From positions 1 to 36,031 of the forward strand of contig JASJQH010000061.1 in NCBI GenBank assembly GCA_040143965.1: 36,031 bases of DNA, in the 5' to 3' direction. The position numbers were made by a program, and so were the translations under genes. The notes beneath the pieces were generated by a model. It saw nothing but the letters and a program-made list of their open reading frames with translations. It was not told where the DNA came from and ran no database searches. Every line of letters starts with the position of its first letter. The stretch's first letter is position 1. The stretch is from Basidiobolus ranarum (lineage: Eukaryota). Shown one piece after another: positions 1 through 24,473 of this stretch.

Positions 1-174
1 AGAGCCGGAGATATGTTCTGTGCCATGAGTAATTTCGTCGGCAAGGACTAAAGTATAGGGATTGGCTCGTTTAAGAATATTTCTAAGGTCGGACATTTCG
101 GCGACAAAAGAGGATTGGCCTTTGAGAATATTATCTTCGCTAAGGATGCGAGTCATGAGAGATTTGTAGGGAGC
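1..174 (-). CDS. MutS-family ATPase (domain V) internal fragment, MutS7-like; truncated by the window edge (C-terminal side) and by the copia junction (N-terminal side)
   Basis: Manual translation of the reverse complement of 174..1 gives the stop-free peptide APYKSLMTRILSEDNILKGQSSFVAEMSDLRNILKRANPYTLVLADEITHGTEHISGS. It contains the MutS N-2 motif (GQSSFxxEM), Walker B (LVLADE) and the following GT motif in canonical order and spacing. Confidence 0.85.
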
Positions 175-175
175 A

Positions 176-733
176 TCATAGCAGTTAAGTGGATTTTCAG
201 ATATTTGAAAGGTACTGTGGATCTGTACTTAAAATACACATGCTCTGGATCAAACTTTGATCTGATAGGATATTCAGATGCAAATTGGGTAAGCAATATT
301 GAAGACAGGAGATGTACATCAGGATACTATTTCTTTGCTGCAATGGAGCTATATCTTGGGACTCAAAGAAACAATCTACCTTATCACTTTCAACAACAGA
401 AGCAGAATACATGGCTACCTGTGAGGCAACAAAAGAAGCAATATAGTTAAGAAAACTATTAACAGATCTAGGTTATTCACAAAATTCACCAGCTACAATA
501 TTTCAAGATAATCAAAGTTGTATCAAATTAGCTAAAAGTCCACATTTCATAATAGAAGCAAACATATAGATATTAAGCATCACTTCATAAGAGAGACTAT
601 AGAGAATAAGTTTATTGACTTAACTTATTGTTCTACAGAAGACATGATTGCTGATATATTAACCAAACCATTAGATAGACAGGAATTTGATAAATTTAGA
701 CCTTCCTTAGGATTAGTTTATATAGCTATTTAG
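176..733 (+). mobile_element. Degenerate Ty1/copia LTR retrotransposon: end of RT plus RNase H (pseudogenised)
   Basis: AVKWIFRYLKGT...GYSDANW...RRCTSGY; after a frameshift near 348, [25 protein letters not shown]...EAI*LRKLL...IFQDNQSCIKLAK; after a second frameshift near 543, FHNRSKHIDIKHHFIRE...TEDMIADILTKPL; stop at 731-733. These are hallmark copia RNase H motifs with one in-frame stop and two frameshifts. Confidence 0.95.
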
Positions 734-735
734 TT

Positions 736-744
736 GAGGGAGAG
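736..744 (+). mobile_element. Polypurine tract (PPT) of the copia element
   Basis: GAGGGAGAG lies just after the pol stop and directly abuts the LTR start. Confidence 0.8.
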
Positions 745-1092
745 TCTTGAAATGGGGCTTGCCTAAACACCTGTATAGTCATATGTAGCTTAGTACTTAG
801 CTATCTTATATTTCACCAAGATATCATCCACTATTTGCAATTGGAATTTACTTAGAATATTTTTACCAACTTGGAAGTTCTCAGATACATAGATTTTTCA
901 AACTTGTGCTAGAAGCCCCAAACTTTGCACACATGATACTGGGACCTTCCTTAGCACATTCTACACATTAGTTTGCTTATATCTTGACAAAACTATAAAT
1001 GTCAACTTTCTACTCAATATTTCAATAAGTGAAAACCACCAATTTCTCTAATTCTCCAAACCACCTCCAACAGGCTCCCAAATACTTTAACA
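745..1092 (+). mobile_element. 3' LTR of the copia element (~348 bp)
   Basis: Starts right after the PPT with TCTTGAAA (mutated TGTTGAAA) and ends TTTAACA, forming the imperfect TGTT..AACA terminal inverted repeat. Internal TATAAA near 994. The first 32 nt match 36000-36031 at 26/32. Confidence 0.8.
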
Positions 1093-2033
1093 AGTATATA
1101 GTCCTATAAAACTTCACCCCAATTCACGCTTTAATCTAAACAACTTGAGCAATAATTAGCTTCTGGCAAAGCTGTGTATTGGAACTATATCTTTGGAGCT
1201 TGTATTTGAGAACACATGTGATTTTAACTGAATCAGCTGGTACCGAGATACTGAAAGCAGCAATGATTATCTTAATGTAAATAACCCCAATACGATATAT
1301 ATAGCCACTTCAGCTGTTAGAATTGTGGCATATGAGACCAAATTGTTGAAGTAAAATGCAAAGGATTTCGGTCAAACCTTCAAGCATTTGACACGAGTAA
1401 GACTCCATGTGGAAAAATTGAACCCGGAGAGTTGGAGCAAAAATTCAACTAGGCAGATGTTGATGAAGCAAAGGAACAACCAATTTCATTCTTGCATAAG
1501 AATTTTGAGTCAAGAAACATGATACTTGTAGGAAACCACATCACCCACTTGCATGATTCTGAATTTGTGAGTACATTCCCTTCAAAAACGAATGGTGCCC
1601 AGGACTCACTTGGTTATTTACCGAGTTCATTTGGGGAGCCAAAACAGCTCAAAAACCTAACCGAGAGACAAGCTTACTTATTATTTATCAAGTCGGAACG
1701 TAACGGAATTCCGATAAACAATGATTTTTGATCACAATCAACATATGACACTATTGATTTTATCTGTCTACGATGTTTAACAGTAGAGTAGGTGTTACAG
1801 AAGCTATTCAGTGTAATAGACTTCACTTGCTCAACATTCCACGTTCTACAGGTTGAGTGAAGTAAAAGTTAAAGAGAATCTATTTTGATTAAAAGAAAGC
1901 ACTTCATGTGGCAGTGAGATATTTCATGGTGAATAGCATTATTACAAATACTTTTGCATGTGAAATAACGGGGGATAGGATCATAAGGGAGACAGGATCA
2001 TAACGGTCGTGCTAATAAGGTATTATACGTTAT

Positions 2034-2199
2034 TGTAAGAAATATACACTTCAGTTGTTAATTGATTTAGTGGCTAGTTATTAATTGATTCAGTCAAGGG
2101 TGTTAATCGATTGAGATGGTTATTAATTGATTGTCATAAGATGGTATTTATTGCTATAGATGAAGCAAGATAACTCTACTCAAGACAATTATGGTTACA
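2034..2199. mobile_element. Possible short solo LTR
   Basis: TGTAA...TTACA termini; flanks GTTAT / GTCAC match at 3/5 and differ by two C>T changes (possible decayed TSD); internal repeated TTAATTGATT units. Confidence 0.3.
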
Positions 2200-3034
2200 G
2201 TCACTTATTTGAAATCATCTTTTTCTGACATAAAAGTCGATTTTAATGATGATTTAGCGTATCATAGATTGCGTATTATGAATAGTGGGAAAATTGACTG
2301 AAATAATGTCAAGCTAGAGACCACAGGCTTGGGCGTTAGTATAACCCTATTTTGTTGGGATACGAAGTATCACAGCGGCAGAGGCCAAGATCTGGTTTTG
2401 CATAGTCTAAGAGAGTATGAGAGTCAAAGAGCTCTAGTAAAAATACAAGTTTGTGGTGTAGTGCTGAGCTCATAATTTACTCGTTTGTATAATATGATAG
2501 AGCAGGCATTGAAAGGGTAACTGGCTATTCTTTGTACTTTATTATATTTCACTGCAGTTTCAGTATGTGAAGCTTTTCCTTCAAGAATTTTATAGTCTGC
2601 AGATCTTTATTCCAGAGCAACTTAAGAGTTTGTTATTCAGTGTTAATTGTATTACATAGCACTATTGTTAACGATGTTGTAACAATTTTCTTGCATGACA
2701 AGCTAAATCTGCATTACTGTATTTATTAATGATTTTGATTGAGATCTCGAAATTGGGAATTGGATAATTAATTAGATACCGAACTAGCTTGTGTTGACTT
2801 TCTCTCTATTATGTGTTATTTACTACATTAGTCGACAAAACAGACAATGTCGACTGCCGTTTTTATCGACCATTGTATTCCTTGTTATCAATAGGTGCAT
2901 AGATAGCAATCCATGAGAACAACTGTTAATAAGGCTTTTAAATGTATCAAGTTGAGTATTCTAAAGAAAAGTGTCTAGACTGTCTCCGATAACCAAATAC
3001 AACTCGGAATGTTCTACTAATCACTTGGATTTTA

Positions 3035-3061
3035 GCATTACAGGCATTACAGGCATTACAG
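3035..3061. repeat. 9-bp tandem repeat (GCATTACAG)x3
   Basis: Three perfect copies read directly from the sequence. Confidence 0.9.
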
Positions 3062-3522
3062 GAAACTCAATCATACACTGAAGACGTGATGCGTAGAAGT
3101 GAATTTCAGTTACAGAATGTGAACTCCAAAATTTTCCAATTTCCCATAAATGGAATAGCGTCCCCTGGACATGCATTCATTGTATTAATAATAACAAACT
3201 GGTATATATAGTACGGATTTTGTTGTATATCTCTCATTAGTAACGTTAGATTCGTGATTTTAAATATTTGATTCGCTCTCATGAATTAAGCAATACATAT
3301 ATATATATACAAACCTTAATTTACCATCACATTGGGAAATGAATTTATACTGAACTAATCTATACCTTCACCCTCACTCTCTCACGTTTAACATAGCCAA
3401 GGTTTCAACAACTCCCAGCAGGTTCAATGACCTGCTTTCCATCGAAGAGTTAAGAAATTTCTTGGGATATGCCACTTGTTACACAATTCAAGACGCTAAC
3501 GGATAATTTTCTACTTGGAAGG

Positions 3523-3530
3523 TATATAAA
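3523..3530 (+). promoter_or_regulatory. TATA box of the DAO-family gene
   Basis: TATATAAA about 90 bp upstream of the ATG at 3617. Confidence 0.55.
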
Positions 3531-3616
3531 TGAAACTACAGACCAATATCCAACATATTATCTGGCATTTTACTTCCACACTCGCCGACACTTGATAAGA
3601 GCTTAAGGTGCAAAAA

Positions 3617-4855
3617 ATGGATTCCGGAGACCTTTACAAGAAAGTAAAAATTACTCGTGCAGATGGTACCAAGCCTCATGTTCTTATTATCGGAGGAGGT
3701 GTTTCAGGTCTCACTACCGCTTGGACTTTGCGTAATTCTGGATGCAAAGTCACTGTTCTAGCCAAGCAATATGCTCAACGTGGAGCTCATGGGAAAGAGA
3801 TTGTCTCCGAGATTGCCGGTGCGCTATGGGAATGGCCACCTGCCGTTTGTGGCTCCCATGGAAAGGATACCGATACCCAGTTGAAAAATTTGCAACGTTG
3901 GTGTCAAATCTCCTATCTACAATTCAAAGATATTGCTGATAAATTCGGTGCAGATGATACCGGTATTCGTAAACGTATGTCGTGTTTCCTGTTTGATCGC
4001 AAATTAACCACTGGGGGCTTGAAAAAGAAGAATGAGATTGAAATAGTATGTGACGGATTTAATGACGATGTTCAAGCTCTGATCAAGAAATACAATATCA
4101 ATACAAATCTTGCGAAGAATGGTTACAACATCGTCGAGGGTTACGAGCATTTGTCATACGTCGTTGATCCTGGAAACTATCTTCACTGGTTAAAACGATT
4201 AGTTGAGGATAAAGACGTTACTCTCCTTCAAGGTGTCATTGAAGACACTCTTTATGAAGAAGCTCCTGATCTATTGAAGCGATTCAAAGCTGATATCATC
4301 GTCAACTGTACTGGTATGGCTTCAAGAGAGCTATGTAGCGATGAAAAAATGAAGCCCCTCCGTGGTATCCTGATTCATGCTAAGAATGATGGAAAGCGGT
4401 TCAAGAAAATTGAAAGCTGTATCTCCATCTCTCAACGTGATGCTGATGCCAATGCCACTGCTGAAGAAAAAAGAAAAGCCGATGAAGGAAGATTCGAGTT
4501 CATTGTACCTAGAAATGACGATATCCTTATTCTCGGCGGTTATGCCCAAATGGGAGAAGAAACATTAGAATGGAATGAAAAAGAGCATCAATACCTGGAG
4601 AGAATGAAAGCTGGATGTGTCAATCTCTATCCAGATTTAGCGAAAGCTGAATTCACTGATTACTACTATCGCGTTGGAATTCGCCCATTCCGTGATGAAC
4701 CCCGTGTAGGTCAAGATGATAAAAACCCCAAGATTTTCCACAATTATGGTCACGGAGGCTCAGGTTACACCCTTTCGTATGGTTGTGCATTAGACATTCG
4801 TAAAAGCGTTAAAGAGTACTTTGAAAATGAAATTAGACCTCGCAGTAACTTGTGA
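3617..4855 (+). CDS. FAD-dependent oxidoreductase, D-amino-acid oxidase (DAO) family; intronless, 412 aa
   Basis: Rossmann motif VLIIGGGVSG; SEIAGALWEWPPAVCG; DIIVNCTG; PLRG; VGIRPFR; and the C-terminal DAO signature HNYGHGGSGYTLSYGCA. First ATG at 3617. Ends in -SNL (PTS1-like). Confidence 0.9.
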   Translation: MDSGDLYKKVKITRADGTKPHVLIIGGGVSGLTTAWTLRNSGCKVTVLAKQYAQRGAHGKEIVSEIAGALWEWPPAVCGSHGKDTDTQLKNLQRWCQISYLQFKDIADKFGADDTGIRKRMSCFLFDRKLTTGGLKKKNEIEIVCDGFNDDVQALIKKYNINTNLAKNGYNIVEGYEHLSYVVDPGNYLHWLKRLVEDKDVTLLQGVIEDTLYEEAPDLLKRFKADIIVNCTGMASRELCSDEKMKPLRGILIHAKNDGKRFKKIESCISISQRDADANATAEEKRKADEGRFEFIVPRNDDILILGGYAQMGEETLEWNEKEHQYLERMKAGCVNLYPDLAKAEFTDYYYRVGIRPFRDEPRVGQDDKNPKIFHNYGHGGSGYTLSYGCALDIRKSVKEYFENEIRPRSNL

Positions 4856-5636: not shown

Positions 5637-6683
5637 TCATTTGGACTGATTGATATTTAATTTTGCCAATAACGCTTCAACTTGTGGTGCTTTGACTTCC
5701 GCCTCAGTAATACTGTTGAAAGTGAAATAAGGTTTCTCACCAAGGACTGTAACTCGTTCACCATGTCGAGCATATGGATAGTAATCTCCAGTAGCGTTGT
5801 GCTGAGTACTACGATTATCCCAAATAGCTACCGAGTTTGGAGTCCAACGCCAACGTACTTGTGCTTCGTGCGAGCGTTGTAAATGTTCGAACAAAAAGCT
5901 AAGAACTAGGTCTGACTCTATCGGATGCAGCTCCTTAATGGCTTTCGTAAATACTGAGTTCACAAATAGCCCTTTTTGATTTGTCAACGGATTAGTGCGC
6001 ACTAGTGGATGTTCAGTATTAATTGGAATATCTCTTGAAAGCGGCTGTCCAGAGGCCTCGGAGAGCTTGAGGAATAATTCTCCACTGTGAATACCTGTGA
6101 GTCCGTCCAAAAACTGTTGGAATTCGGGGCTTAACTTATCGTAAAGGGCATACGAGTTAGACCACAACGTGTCTCCTCCGGTTACTGGTACTTCTTTCAA
6201 TTGGAGAATGGAGAATGATGCTGGTTGTTCTTCGAATGAAATATCAGTATGCCAGGTGCCCTTTCTATATACCTCCCCTAGAGTTTGTTTGGAAGTCGTA
6301 ACTGCAGATGGAATTACAATTTCTGGATAAGAATTTGGAGTAGGAACGAATGGGTGAATATGAAGCTCGCCAAGTCGTCGGCCAAATGCCACCTGGCCAT
6401 CACGATCCAACTCTTGATCTCGGAAGAATACAACACCGCGTTCAGCAATCAAAGCTAAGAGATCCTCAAGTTGAGCATCAGTCAGCTTTGCCAATTGTAG
6501 GCCTTCGAGTTCGGTCCCGATAGATGGAGTCAAATCCGTACGTCTGGTAGCTGCATCTAGTAGATTTTTACGTTCCGGGTGAGCATTGAAGCCTTGAATG
6601 TACTTAGGATTACGATAATTATTGAGGGCCTTGGCTGCGCTATTATCCTTAGCAGAGATTATTTCTTGGCTTGTAATGGTCAT
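5637..6683 (-). CDS. Fe(II)/2-oxoglutarate-dependent sulfonate/taurine dioxygenase, TauD/TfdA family (JLP1-like), paralog A; intronless
   Basis: LTPSIGTE, ERGVVFFRDQ, WHTDISFE (HxD iron ligands), GGDTLW, EHPLVRTNP, AIWDNRSTQH (distal His), and the terminal ERVT Arg. Confidence 0.93.
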   Translation of the reverse strand: MTITSQEIISAKDNSAAKALNNYRNPKYIQGFNAHPERKNLLDAATRRTDLTPSIGTELEGLQLAKLTDAQLEDLLALIAERGVVFFRDQELDRDGQVAFGRRLGELHIHPFVPTPNSYPEIVIPSAVTTSKQTLGEVYRKGTWHTDISFEEQPASFSILQLKEVPVTGGDTLWSNSYALYDKLSPEFQQFLDGLTGIHSGELFLKLSEASGQPLSRDIPINTEHPLVRTNPLTNQKGLFVNSVFTKAIKELHPIESDLVLSFLFEHLQRSHEAQVRWRWTPNSVAIWDNRSTQHNATGDYYPYARHGERVTVLGEKPYFTFNSITEAEVKAPQVEALLAKLNINQSK

Positions 6684-7621
6684 ACTTCAGTGAAATGCTG
6701 ATGGGAGGAAGTAATGACGATTTCTATCTACCCTAGCTCTATATATACTCCGCCAGTGTCGCAATGATTTACAATGAGTTCACAATTTTCCGTAGCGGTT
6801 GCATCATTTTTTAATCCAGGTCAAAGCTCGATCCTACCAACGTTTGTGATCCCTTTCTGCTTTGGAGATATCTAAAGCATTAAGATTGCTCATACTACTA
6901 GGATACATTACATTAACCTTATATCTTGCTACAGTTAATACATATGGGCTTTCATAAAAGTTATTGCTTTTAGATCTGATTAAAAACTGAACTCGAACTT
7001 TCACATAGATTTGGCTTGAAAACTAGATTATGATCTAACTTGATTAGTTGATCGAATTTCAATCTTTTACGGGATGATAAGTTAACAGGATGTGAGTTTA
7101 TACTCCTATTACAATATTTAACAAATGCATTTGATTATGTTATTAATAGAGCTATCTTCACAAACGTGATTTTTATCTTTAATGATATTTCTTATCGGAG
7201 TAATTATTAGCCTTCAATATCATGCGAAAGACATCCAATCTAGAATACAAATGGACTTGAAGGGATCTCCTAATTCCTTTCAATCATCACCTAATCTAAT
7301 ATTGTCAAACTATATCATGATATCCTGTTGATATAAAGTCAAGCCATTAGAGTCAAGCTCATGGATCACAAACTCCAGACTCATATCTAACCCCAATAGC
7401 ACCTTTAGTAAACTGATTTTACCGTGACAAACCAGTTACATCAATCTGGATTGGATAGAATTTTGTGTAATGTAGACGATGATGTGACAGTTGAGTGCAA
7501 TTGTGGAAATACCTCGAATAATGGCGACACTCCCCGTATTATTCCACAGCCGAGTATATATACTAGCATATGTTAAGTGTATTATTATCACTCAAGTTTT
7601 AATACCATCTCTTTAAGCAAT

Positions 7622-8671
7622 ATGACCGTCACCAGCCAAGAGAACACTGCTTCTAACAATAATATCTCCAATAATTCTTTTAACGAGTATCGCAACCCCA
7701 AATATATTCAAGGGTTCAATGCTCACCCTGAATACAAGAACTTACTGGAGGTGGCAACCAAGCGTACAGACCTGACTCCTTCCATTGGAACTGAGATTGA
7801 AGGTTTACAGTTGGCGCAACTGACAGATGCTCAACTTGAGGATCTCTTAGCTCTGGCTGCTGTACGTGGTGTTGTATTCTTTCGTGAACAGAATTTCAGT
7901 CAGGAAGATGAAGTAGCTTTTGGCCGACGATTAGGTGAGCTCCACATTCATCCATTCATTCCAGCTCCCGACTCTTATCCTGAGATTGTGATTCCATCTG
8001 GAGCTGGAAAATCTTCTGCATACGTAGATAGTCTCTATCGCAAAGGTTCTTGGCACACTGATATCTCATTTGAAGAGCGTCCAGCATCATTCTCTATTCT
8101 TCAGCTGAAACAAGTTCCAAAAACAGGAGGGGATACTTTGTGGTCCAATTCGTACGCTCTCTATGACAAACTAAGCCCGGAATTCAAAGTTTTTCTCGAA
8201 AAACTCACAGCAGTTCACAGTGGGGATATTTTCATCAAGTCTGCTGAACTTTCTGGCAAGCCGCTGACAAGAGAGGTTCCAACCCATACCGAACACCCAC
8301 TAGTTCGCACAAATCCATTAACAAATCAGAAAGGGTTATTTGTCAATGCTGTTTTCACTAAAGCGATCAAAGAACTCACCCCAGTAGAGTCGGATATTAT
8401 TCTTGATCTTCTCTTCGCTCATCTTCAACGCACACACGAAGCACAAGTGCGATGGACTTGGACTGCTAATTCGGTTGCAATTTGGGATAATCGCAGTACT
8501 CAACATAATGCCACCTTTGACTACTATCCATACCTCAGATATGGTGAGCGTGTGACAGTGGTAGGCGAGAGACCCTATTTTGATCCCAATAGTACCACAG
8601 AAGCCGAAGTCAAAGCACCTCAAATTGAAGCTTTGTTAGAAAAACTCAAGTTGAGTCAGCTTGCACTCTAA
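7622..8671 (+). CDS. TauD/TfdA-family sulfonate dioxygenase (JLP1-like), paralog B; intronless
   Basis: Same motifs as paralog A with long identical blocks (YRNPKYIQGFNAHPE, GGDTLWSNSYALYDKLSPEF, TEHPLVRTNPLTNQKGLFVN). ATG at 7622 (MTVTSQE) aligns with the paralog A start (MTITSQE). Confidence 0.93.
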   Translation: MTVTSQENTASNNNISNNSFNEYRNPKYIQGFNAHPEYKNLLEVATKRTDLTPSIGTEIEGLQLAQLTDAQLEDLLALAAVRGVVFFREQNFSQEDEVAFGRRLGELHIHPFIPAPDSYPEIVIPSGAGKSSAYVDSLYRKGSWHTDISFEERPASFSILQLKQVPKTGGDTLWSNSYALYDKLSPEFKVFLEKLTAVHSGDIFIKSAELSGKPLTREVPTHTEHPLVRTNPLTNQKGLFVNAVFTKAIKELTPVESDIILDLLFAHLQRTHEAQVRWTWTANSVAIWDNRSTQHNATFDYYPYLRYGERVTVVGERPYFDPNSTTEAEVKAPQIEALLEKLKLSQLAL

Positions 8672-24393: not shown

Positions 24394-24473
24394 TTCAATT
24401 CGTTGCAATTGATGTCCATTATACATTCTTCATTTCAATTCGTTGCAATTGATGTCCATTATATATTCTTCAT
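24394..24473. repeat. 40-bp tandem duplication (2 copies, 1 mismatch)
   Basis: TTCAATTCGTTGCAATTGATGTCCATTATA(C/T)ATTCTTCAT at 24394-24433 and 24434-24473. Confidence 0.95.

Follow-up and report, generated by a model that had tools for sequence, protein, structure and literature searches.

What is a piece of a mismatch-repair gene doing at the very end of a fungal contig? The question is raised by contig JASJQH010000061.1 of Basidiobolus ranarum (assembly GCA_040143965.1), the whole of which, 36,031 bases, was analyzed here and is referred to as the window. A first-pass annotation made from the letters alone had noticed, at the left end of the contig, a hidden stop-free frame on the minus strand, and had read it as part of a MutS gene of the MutS7 subfamily, possibly the tip of an endogenous giant-virus element. 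Our analysis suggests that window positions 1–171 are probably a dead, truncated paralogue of a MutS7-type gene, which the Basidiobolus lineage would have acquired from a giant virus (Nucleocytoviricota) and which would since have multiplied and decayed in the nuclear genome. The features on which the argument turns are as follows.

1–171, minus strand: truncated MutS7-type domain V fragment of 57 stop-free codons, with the frame open to window base 1 (Pfam, PDB, NCBIfam, tblastn, and BLASTP).
172–177: breakpoint, where MutS7 homology (minus strand) has ended at 171 and copia homology (plus strand) begins between 172 and 181, depending on the relative compared.
178–733, plus strand: degenerate 3' end of a copia-type (Ty1/copia) pol gene, the last ~190 codons (tblastn, in three frames at 178–336, 327–548, and 545–730).

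The minus-strand translation of positions 180–1 starts with YDA, continues with the peptide quoted in the first-pass annotation, which was reproduced exactly, and contains no stop. The fragment corresponds to residues 660–716 of a 921-amino-acid protein of Basidiobolus meristosporus, hereafter P0003, and contains the Walker B motif (LVLADE) together with an ITHGTE variant. The Pfam MutS_V model matched it with an E-value of 1e−11 (45.6 bits against a cut-off of 30.2), with profile positions 41–95 of 188 aligned to residues 5–59 of the 180–1 translation. Two NCBIfam MutS models also matched, at 2.1e−11 (the best, bacterial MutS1) and 4e−10, far under the whole-protein cut-off (480 bits for the best model), as expected for a piece. 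The best PDB match was E. coli MutS, residues 649–702 (E-value 1.2e−08). The assignment to the Walker B region of the MutS ATPase, domain V, is thus upheld, and the contrast that had been drawn with canonical MutS (DEITHGTE against DEIGRGTS) is real, because the PDB alignment sets E. coli lvlmDEIgrGTs against window lvlaDEIthGTe. The openness of the frame is itself weak evidence, because 1248 of 20000 base shuffles of the 171 nucleotides were also stop-free; the similarity carries the case. In BLASTP, the fragment was identical to the B. meristosporus proteins P0002 and P0003 at 56 of 57 residues, and in tblastn of P0003 against the window, positions 174–1 were covered at 96.6% identity over 58 amino acids, with a mismatch at 172–174. 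The only difference from P0003 within the fragment is a change of D to N (codon AAT, at about 55–57 on the minus strand). The feature is shorter than first proposed: MutS homology stops at base 171, at a proline, and the codons at 172–180 (YDA), which had been included in it, belong to the junction or to the copia piece. Domains I and III are missing from the window copy, since its homology ends at 171 against the copia remnant, and no further MutS7 piece (P-loop, domain I, or domain III) was found in window 1–3600 by tblastn with P0003 and a second B. meristosporus model, P0113. On the other side, the sequence beyond the Walker B motif, including the expected position of the HNH domain, runs off the left end of the contig. 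As judged from these alignments, the fragment is a real but broken piece of a giant-virus-type mismatch-repair gene.

A word-seeded search for longer relatives of the fragment gave 99 matches at E ≤0.001 among 125 candidates. The top three were proteins of B. meristosporus CBS 931.73 (97, 97, and 87% identity), and the rest were metagenome proteins, mostly 58–84% identical over the fragment and mostly 880–990 amino acids in length; the best identity outside Basidiobolus was 84% over 57 amino acids. The precomputed Pfam domains of the 99 matches were typically MutS_I, MutS_III, and MutS_V, with HNH in addition in 24 of them. Identity to the fragment was graded as follows.

Basidiobolus, all five models: 86–98%.
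IMG/VR, 80 rows: 46–78%.
Campylobacterota MutS7: 53%.
Bacterial MutS1, 31 rows: 29–42%.

The IMG/VR rows came from a query with an alignment, which found 133 relatives among 186 pattern matches; 80 were kept, and 27 of these carry “GVMAG” in the contig name. A scan of IMG/VR with P0003 alone found one weak locus only (L001, with an HNH tail, 31%). The nearest IMG/VR locus, L009 (49% best-segment identity), encodes a D5-like primase, an XPG nuclease, a family-B DNA polymerase, and an Rpb1 fragment beside its MutS, and locus L010 carries Rpb1 and MutS. The giant-virus bin that holds a third locus, L014 (625,640 bases), gave four matches over cut-off to the capsid model of nucleocytoplasmic large DNA viruses (NCLDVs), and the same model matched none of the 14 control genomes. 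When 185,579 prokaryotic species genomes were scanned, 31 relatives were found among 468 pattern matches, all of them MutS1-like with 24–29% identity; no Campylobacterota MutS7 was returned, but since the scan used two peptide patterns only, this does not count as evidence that it is absent. A search with full-length P0003 gave 497 proteins at E ≤1e−20 among 7,999 scored candidates, and no other named fungus occurred among the best 120 of the 497.

Phylogenetic trees were constructed with FastTree (137 rows) and with IQ-TREE in quick mode (59 rows; LG+G4, a short search, with the SH-like approximate likelihood ratio test as the only branch support), and both were rooted on bacterial MutS1. In the FastTree tree, the five Basidiobolus rows formed one clade (100) inside a 38-row clade with L009 and L010 (100), and all 29 bacterial MutS1 rows lay across a branch of length 1.02. 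In the IQ-TREE tree, the Basidiobolus rows again formed one clade (100), inside a 20-row clade with L009 and L010 (100), itself inside a 45-row clade that contained all 21 viral rows (95); the sister of this viral clade was a 6-row clade with the named Campylobacterota and Patescibacteria proteins (100). The stem of the Basidiobolus clade was 0.47–0.48 in the two trees, and the clade was well separated from every environmental viral sequence. In these trees, then, the Basidiobolus MutS7 copies nest inside the giant-virus MutS7 radiation, and the paralogues group with giant-virus and epsilonproteobacterial MutS7, apart from MutS1; the fragment is placed there by graded identity. At 57 residues it is too short for a tree, and its placement rests on near-identity to P0003. 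The first-pass annotation had read the fragment as MutS7-like and of giant-virus type, as distinct from MSH1–6 or MutS1/2, and had called for a homology search and a MutS phylogeny. Both bear it out: the fragment is nearly identical to a protein of I-III-V-HNH layout, whose clade lies within the IMG/VR MutS7 radiation apart from bacterial MutS1, and MSH proteins are excluded by PDB scores.

Because the window copy ends before the C-terminal region, the HNH tail was assessed on P0003 as a proxy and on its viral relatives. MutS7 is defined by domains I, III, and V with a C-terminal HNH domain (described in PMC3166940, citing Ogata et al. 2011), and MSH and MutS1 proteins are described there as lacking the HNH tail. 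In P0003 (ORX78500.1, 921 amino acids, B. meristosporus CBS 931.73), Pfam found MutS_I (1.5e−10), MutS_III (3.1e−14), and MutS_V (7.7e−39), as well as a marginal MutS_IV match nested in domain III (23.3 bits against a 22-bit cut-off). The HNH model PF01844 gave a full-length match at residues 844–900, below its cut-off (16.1 against 21.4 bits), and the MutS of the viral relative L010 passed the HNH cut-off with 28.2 bits. When P0003 was aligned with 33 relatives at 35–52% identity, the residues invariant across all 34 proteins were F34, E36, G630, K631, D704, E705, C844, C847, H862, H863, N886, C891, C894, H895, and H899. These columns are the Phe-x-Glu of domain I, which is the mismatch-contacting motif of MutS, the Walker A and Walker B motifs, and the four cysteines and H-H-N-H-H residues of the HNH finger. 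P0003 therefore shares the I-III-V-HNH layout of the giant-virus proteins, of which the window copy has only residues 660–716. Two observations on domain content may be added here. P0003 at about residues 145–175 and P0113 at about 400–500 contain low-complexity tandem peptide repeats (TNKKLTSD units occur in both, and P0113 also has a long stretch rich in SSS/PPN), which may be real insertions or gene-model artefacts. Furthermore, three environmental MutS7 relatives (P0147, P0163, and P0167, about 1405–1415 amino acids) have intein-type domains (PF05203/PF05204) inside the MutS gene, in agreement with the remark that some nucleocytovirus MutS genes encode inteins (10.1101/2024.07.17.603841).

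P0003 is not the only copy in its genome. In B. meristosporus, at least five gene models belong to the MutS7 family, with lengths of 921, 1060, 255, 265, and 115 amino acids, on contigs of 30–261 kb (ORX78500.1, which is P0003, ORX83518.1, ORY07083.1, ORX94660.1, and ORX78103.1); their annotations go no further than hypothetical protein, P-loop NTPase, or “mutS family domain-containing” protein. The Walker B variant ADEITHGTE is common to the window fragment and the B. meristosporus models, and the N that the window copy has where P0003 has D also occurs in the decayed models P0004 and P0114. The substitutions that separate the paralogues from P0003 are mostly E to K, D to N, and R to C, and the D to N of the window copy is of the same kind. 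Scored at the protein level only, their direction was as follows.

P0113 against P0003: 48 of 60 substitutions fit only G>A/C>T, and 3 fit only the reverse.
P0004 against P0003: 11 of 12 fit only G>A/C>T, and 0 only the reverse.
P0114 against P0003: 19 of 34 fit only G>A/C>T, and 2 only the reverse.
P0002 against P0003: 2 of 7 fit only G>A/C>T, and 1 only the reverse.

Such directional substitutions look like repeat-directed deamination in a zoopagomycete, either similar to repeat-induced point mutation (RIP) or by deamination of methyl-C or TpC; the searched passages of a paper on RIP across fungi (PMC12543289) do not mention Basidiobolus. On this evidence, the window fragment is a member of a multi-copy, partly decayed family, a point that the first-pass annotation had overlooked.

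Also overlooked was what the fragment abuts. Five copia-type polyproteins align to the plus strand of the window from 172–181 to 730 (tblastn), with alignment starts at 172, 178, or 181. The MutS alignment extends as far as 174, including the mismatch at 172–174, and direct reading of the sequence showed no spacer, long terminal repeat (LTR), or splice signal between the two parts. The pol remnant has an in-frame TAG at 444–446, where four of the five aligned relatives have W, and the pol stop lies at 731–733. Its copia identity was established indirectly, by phmmer against a representative library followed by Pfam on the matches: window 542–730 matched 22,477 representatives at E ≤0.001, and among six long matches RVT_2 was found in six, rve (the integrase core) in four, and a copia-type gag in three. 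Searches of Pfam, PDB, and the ESM Atlas with the copia pieces themselves gave nothing useful, and Pfam gave no model match. The alignment covers the last ~190 residues of proteins of 992–1495 amino acids, a region that we take to be the RNase H part. A complete copia element (LTRs, gag, integrase, and reverse transcriptase) is not present, as copia homology begins only at 172–181, and no LTR repeat was found in the window, where the only repeats are one 40-nt tandem pair and an inverted pair of TauD genes. In other words, two truncated sequences abut in opposite orientations: a MutS7 gene without anything before residue 660 and a dead copia pol tail. In the assembled sequence, a degenerate copia pol remnant thus cuts off the window copy on the N-terminal side. 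Such a junction does not have the form of a canonical retrotransposon insertion; it resembles the product of a deletion or of illegitimate recombination within repeat-rich DNA, with a mis-join as the less likely alternative.

In favor of a mis-join, the fragment lies at the very contig end, abuts a copia repeat at a non-canonical junction, and differs in base composition from its neighbor (guanine-cytosine content of 43% in 1–171 and 32% in 172–733, with 38% in the whole window). The 171 bases could then stem from another organism sequenced together with the fungus, such as a giant virus. We nevertheless consider such a chimera or contaminant unlikely, since 56 of the 57 amino acids are matched in an independent assembly of another Basidiobolus species, in which five models, some of them decayed, lie on contigs of 30–261 kb. 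That a second species has independent copies, on contigs as long as 261 kb, speaks for the gene being truly resident in the genome of the fungus. In addition, the Basidiobolus copies form a clade of their own on a stem of 0.47–0.48, away from every environmental viral sequence, and the best identity outside the genus is just 84%. A gene of the ordinary fungal MSH1–6 set, or one of mitochondrial MutS1 type whose Walker B region has diverged, would also explain a match to MutS domain V whose best NCBIfam model is bacterial MutS1 (2.1e−11, far under the 480-bit cut-off). This we regard as extremely improbable: human MSH2, MSH3, and MSH6 and E. coli or Taq MutS scored 25–38 bits against the fragment (in PDB, E. 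coli MutS 37.9, MSH3 32.5, MSH6 28.8, and MSH2 25.3), compared with 110 bits for Basidiobolus and 75–92 for most environmental relatives, and the full-length proxy P0003 carries an HNH tail.

A bacterial donor, of the Campylobacterota or the candidate phyla radiation (CPR) type of MutS7, in place of a virus also has points in its favor. MutS7 is known in Epsilonproteobacteria (reported in PMC3166940), Basidiobolus is reported to have acquired bacterial genes (a statement in PMC7466969), and among the best 120 matches to P0003 were a protein from a Campylobacterota metagenome-assembled genome (474 bits, ~36% identity) and a Patescibacteria protein (473 bits, ~35%). The bacterial MutS7 clade of six rows (100), however, is sister to the clade of viruses and Basidiobolus (95) in the 59-row tree and does not lie inside it; the fragment shares 53% identity with the Campylobacterota protein versus up to 78% with IMG/VR loci; and the prokaryote scan with two peptide patterns returned MutS1-like genes only (24–29%). 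A bacterial origin is therefore very unlikely. We attach similarly little probability to the fragment being an exon of a live, spliced MutS7 gene, or of a chimeric transcript, with the other exons outside the contig and with a function in the host. Its 57 codons are free of stops and one residue (D to N) away from intact P0003, and B. meristosporus retains the full-length 921-amino-acid model with all catalytic residues. Against this, P0003 and its viral relatives continue unbroken across the point where the window diverges, no AG acceptor was seen beside base 172 on the minus strand, the adjoining sequence is an oppositely oriented copia pol remnant with two frameshifts and a stop, and the 3.6 kb searched with P0003 and P0113 held no P-loop, domain I, or domain III.

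Several points weigh against a dead paralogue of giant-virus descent. The junction is seen in the assembly only, where it may be a mis-join at the contig end. The 10 window ORFs scanned included no viral hallmark gene. The “viral” label of the environmental rows is that of IMG/VR, and hallmark genes were checked for L009, L010, and the bin of L014 only. The trees were built without eukaryotic MSH1–6, MutS2–6, MutS8, octocoral mtMutS, or a named isolate virus, so that the exclusion of MSH comes from PDB scores; the fragment row was dropped, because it filled <10% of the kept columns; and the metagenome rows were selected for being the best matches, so that the neighborhood is biased. We infer the direction of transfer, from virus to fungus, from nesting in a tree rooted on MutS1 only. 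Finally, among the best 120 of 255 matches to the family-B polymerase adjacent to the MutS of L009, there was no Basidiobolus protein, and the MutS7 copies are therefore not tied through this polymerase to a particular endogenous virus.

The surroundings of the fragment look fungal. The window contains 21 listed ORFs of at least 120 amino acids, and of the 10 largest, which were scanned, 8 were of host type and 2 had no family. Ordinary eukaryotic genes in the window are DAO (a flavin adenine dinucleotide [FAD] oxidoreductase), two TauD genes, MMM1, those for ribosomal proteins S4e and S11, a PSP-domain protein, Prp19, and a cyclin, and the first host gene lies 3.4 kb from the MutS7 stump. Physical linkage to host genes is thus present in the assembly, and the first-pass annotation was right that the fragment adjoins core fungal genes. 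Its suggested look for NCLDV hallmark genes (capsid, PolB, A32, and VLTF3) had a different outcome: with none among the 10 window ORFs and the left flank off the contig, a multi-gene viral insert is not seen here.

Some further features of the contig were also noted. The FAD oxidoreductase (3617–4852, plus strand) falls in a 90% identity cluster with seven other B. ranarum proteins on separate contigs, and a TauD protein (7622–8668, plus strand) clusters at 90% identity with three other B. ranarum proteins. The assembly holds many near-identical copies of the window region, by high ploidy, uncollapsed haplotypes, or recent segmental duplication. The two TauD/TfdA dioxygenase genes (5646–6684 and 7621–8659) stand head to head as an inverted duplication with arms of 624 and 383 nt that are 73% complementary. 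The tandem pair of the 40-nt unit, perfect to 98%, lies at 24394–24473 and is the only direct repeat of at least 40 nt in the window.

A giant-virus origin followed by multiplication and decay would explain these observations by the following course of events. A giant virus carrying MutS7 would have left DNA in the Basidiobolus lineage, where the gene would have been copied several times in the nuclear genome, and most copies would then have decayed through transition mutations and rearrangement. The copy in the window would have become fused head-on to a copia pol tail, most likely by deletion or illegitimate recombination in repeat-rich DNA; we infer this origin of the junction, as well as nuclear integration at exactly this place, from the arrangement of the two truncated pieces. 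That the contig stops after 171 bases of the repeat is probably due to the assembler failing to resolve a multi-copy sequence. Because domains I and III and the P-loop are missing, the window copy cannot make a working MutS. The intact parent type would bind mismatches via domain I, cycle ATP in domain V, and nick DNA with the HNH domain that it carries itself. In this way, P0003 and its viral relatives would work as a self-contained mismatch sensor and nicking enzyme, as has been proposed for the octocoral mitochondrial protein mtMutS (in the account of PMC3166940).

A more far-reaching reading, which is possible but doubtful, is that one giant-virus MutS7-HNH gene has kept working as a host gene, the candidate being the 921-amino-acid model with all invariant catalytic residues. 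The surplus copies, including that of the window, would then have been inactivated in two ways, by a strongly directional G:C-to-A:T process that targets repeats and by rearrangement associated with retrotransposons. If so, the domesticated 921-amino-acid MutS7-HNH protein would be a fungal parallel to octocoral mtMutS, and the G:C-to-A:T process would amount to a mutational defence directed at repeats in a zoopagomycete, a fungus not among the groups for which RIP is usually described.

Endogenous giant-virus DNA in Basidiobolus is already published. Gong et al. 2020 (PMC7017919) describe endogenous NCLDV elements (“fundsalphaviruses”) for B. meristosporus and for B. heterosporus; the elements contain premature stops and frameshifts, and some of them have retrotransposon sequences nearby. 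According to the same account, the probe was the family-B DNA polymerase only, and 87 sequences and a Pithovirus-like lineage are reported. The words “MutS” and “mismatch” do not occur in the main text of that paper, and no published account of MutS7 in Basidiobolus, or in fungi generally, was found in the literature searched. MutS7 would be a marker of a different kind from the polymerase that has been used to detect endogenous giant-virus DNA in fungi, and it points to past contact of Basidiobolus with viruses that have a MutS7 similar to the one in environmental giant-virus bins. The window fragment itself is inert; its value is as a pointer to the MutS7 family and to the decay of such insertions beside retrotransposons.

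MutS7 has been recorded in nucleocytoviruses, Epsilonproteobacteria, and octocoral mitochondria (in the passages concerned of 10.1101/2024.07.17.603841, PMC8438181, and PMC3166940). Compared with the giant-virus proteins (Mimiviridae and relatives), here represented by metagenomic contigs and bins, the Basidiobolus copies reside in a fungal genome, and the window copy is a fragment. The octocoral mtMutS is a eukaryote-resident MutS7 to which a giant-virus origin is ascribed (PMC3166940 and PMC8438181, as far as the passages on its origin go), and its four-domain layout is the same as that of P0003. The likeness extends to a weak domain IV signal nested in domain III, which is seen in P0003 (23.3 bits) and is described for two octocorals in PMC8438181. 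In contrast to the Basidiobolus family, which is multi-copy, partly decayed, and located beside nuclear-type genes, octocoral mtMutS is a single, conserved, and expressed mitochondrial gene. A MutS7 family of several copies in a fungal genus, one of them apparently intact, would add a further eukaryotic acquisition to that of the octocorals.

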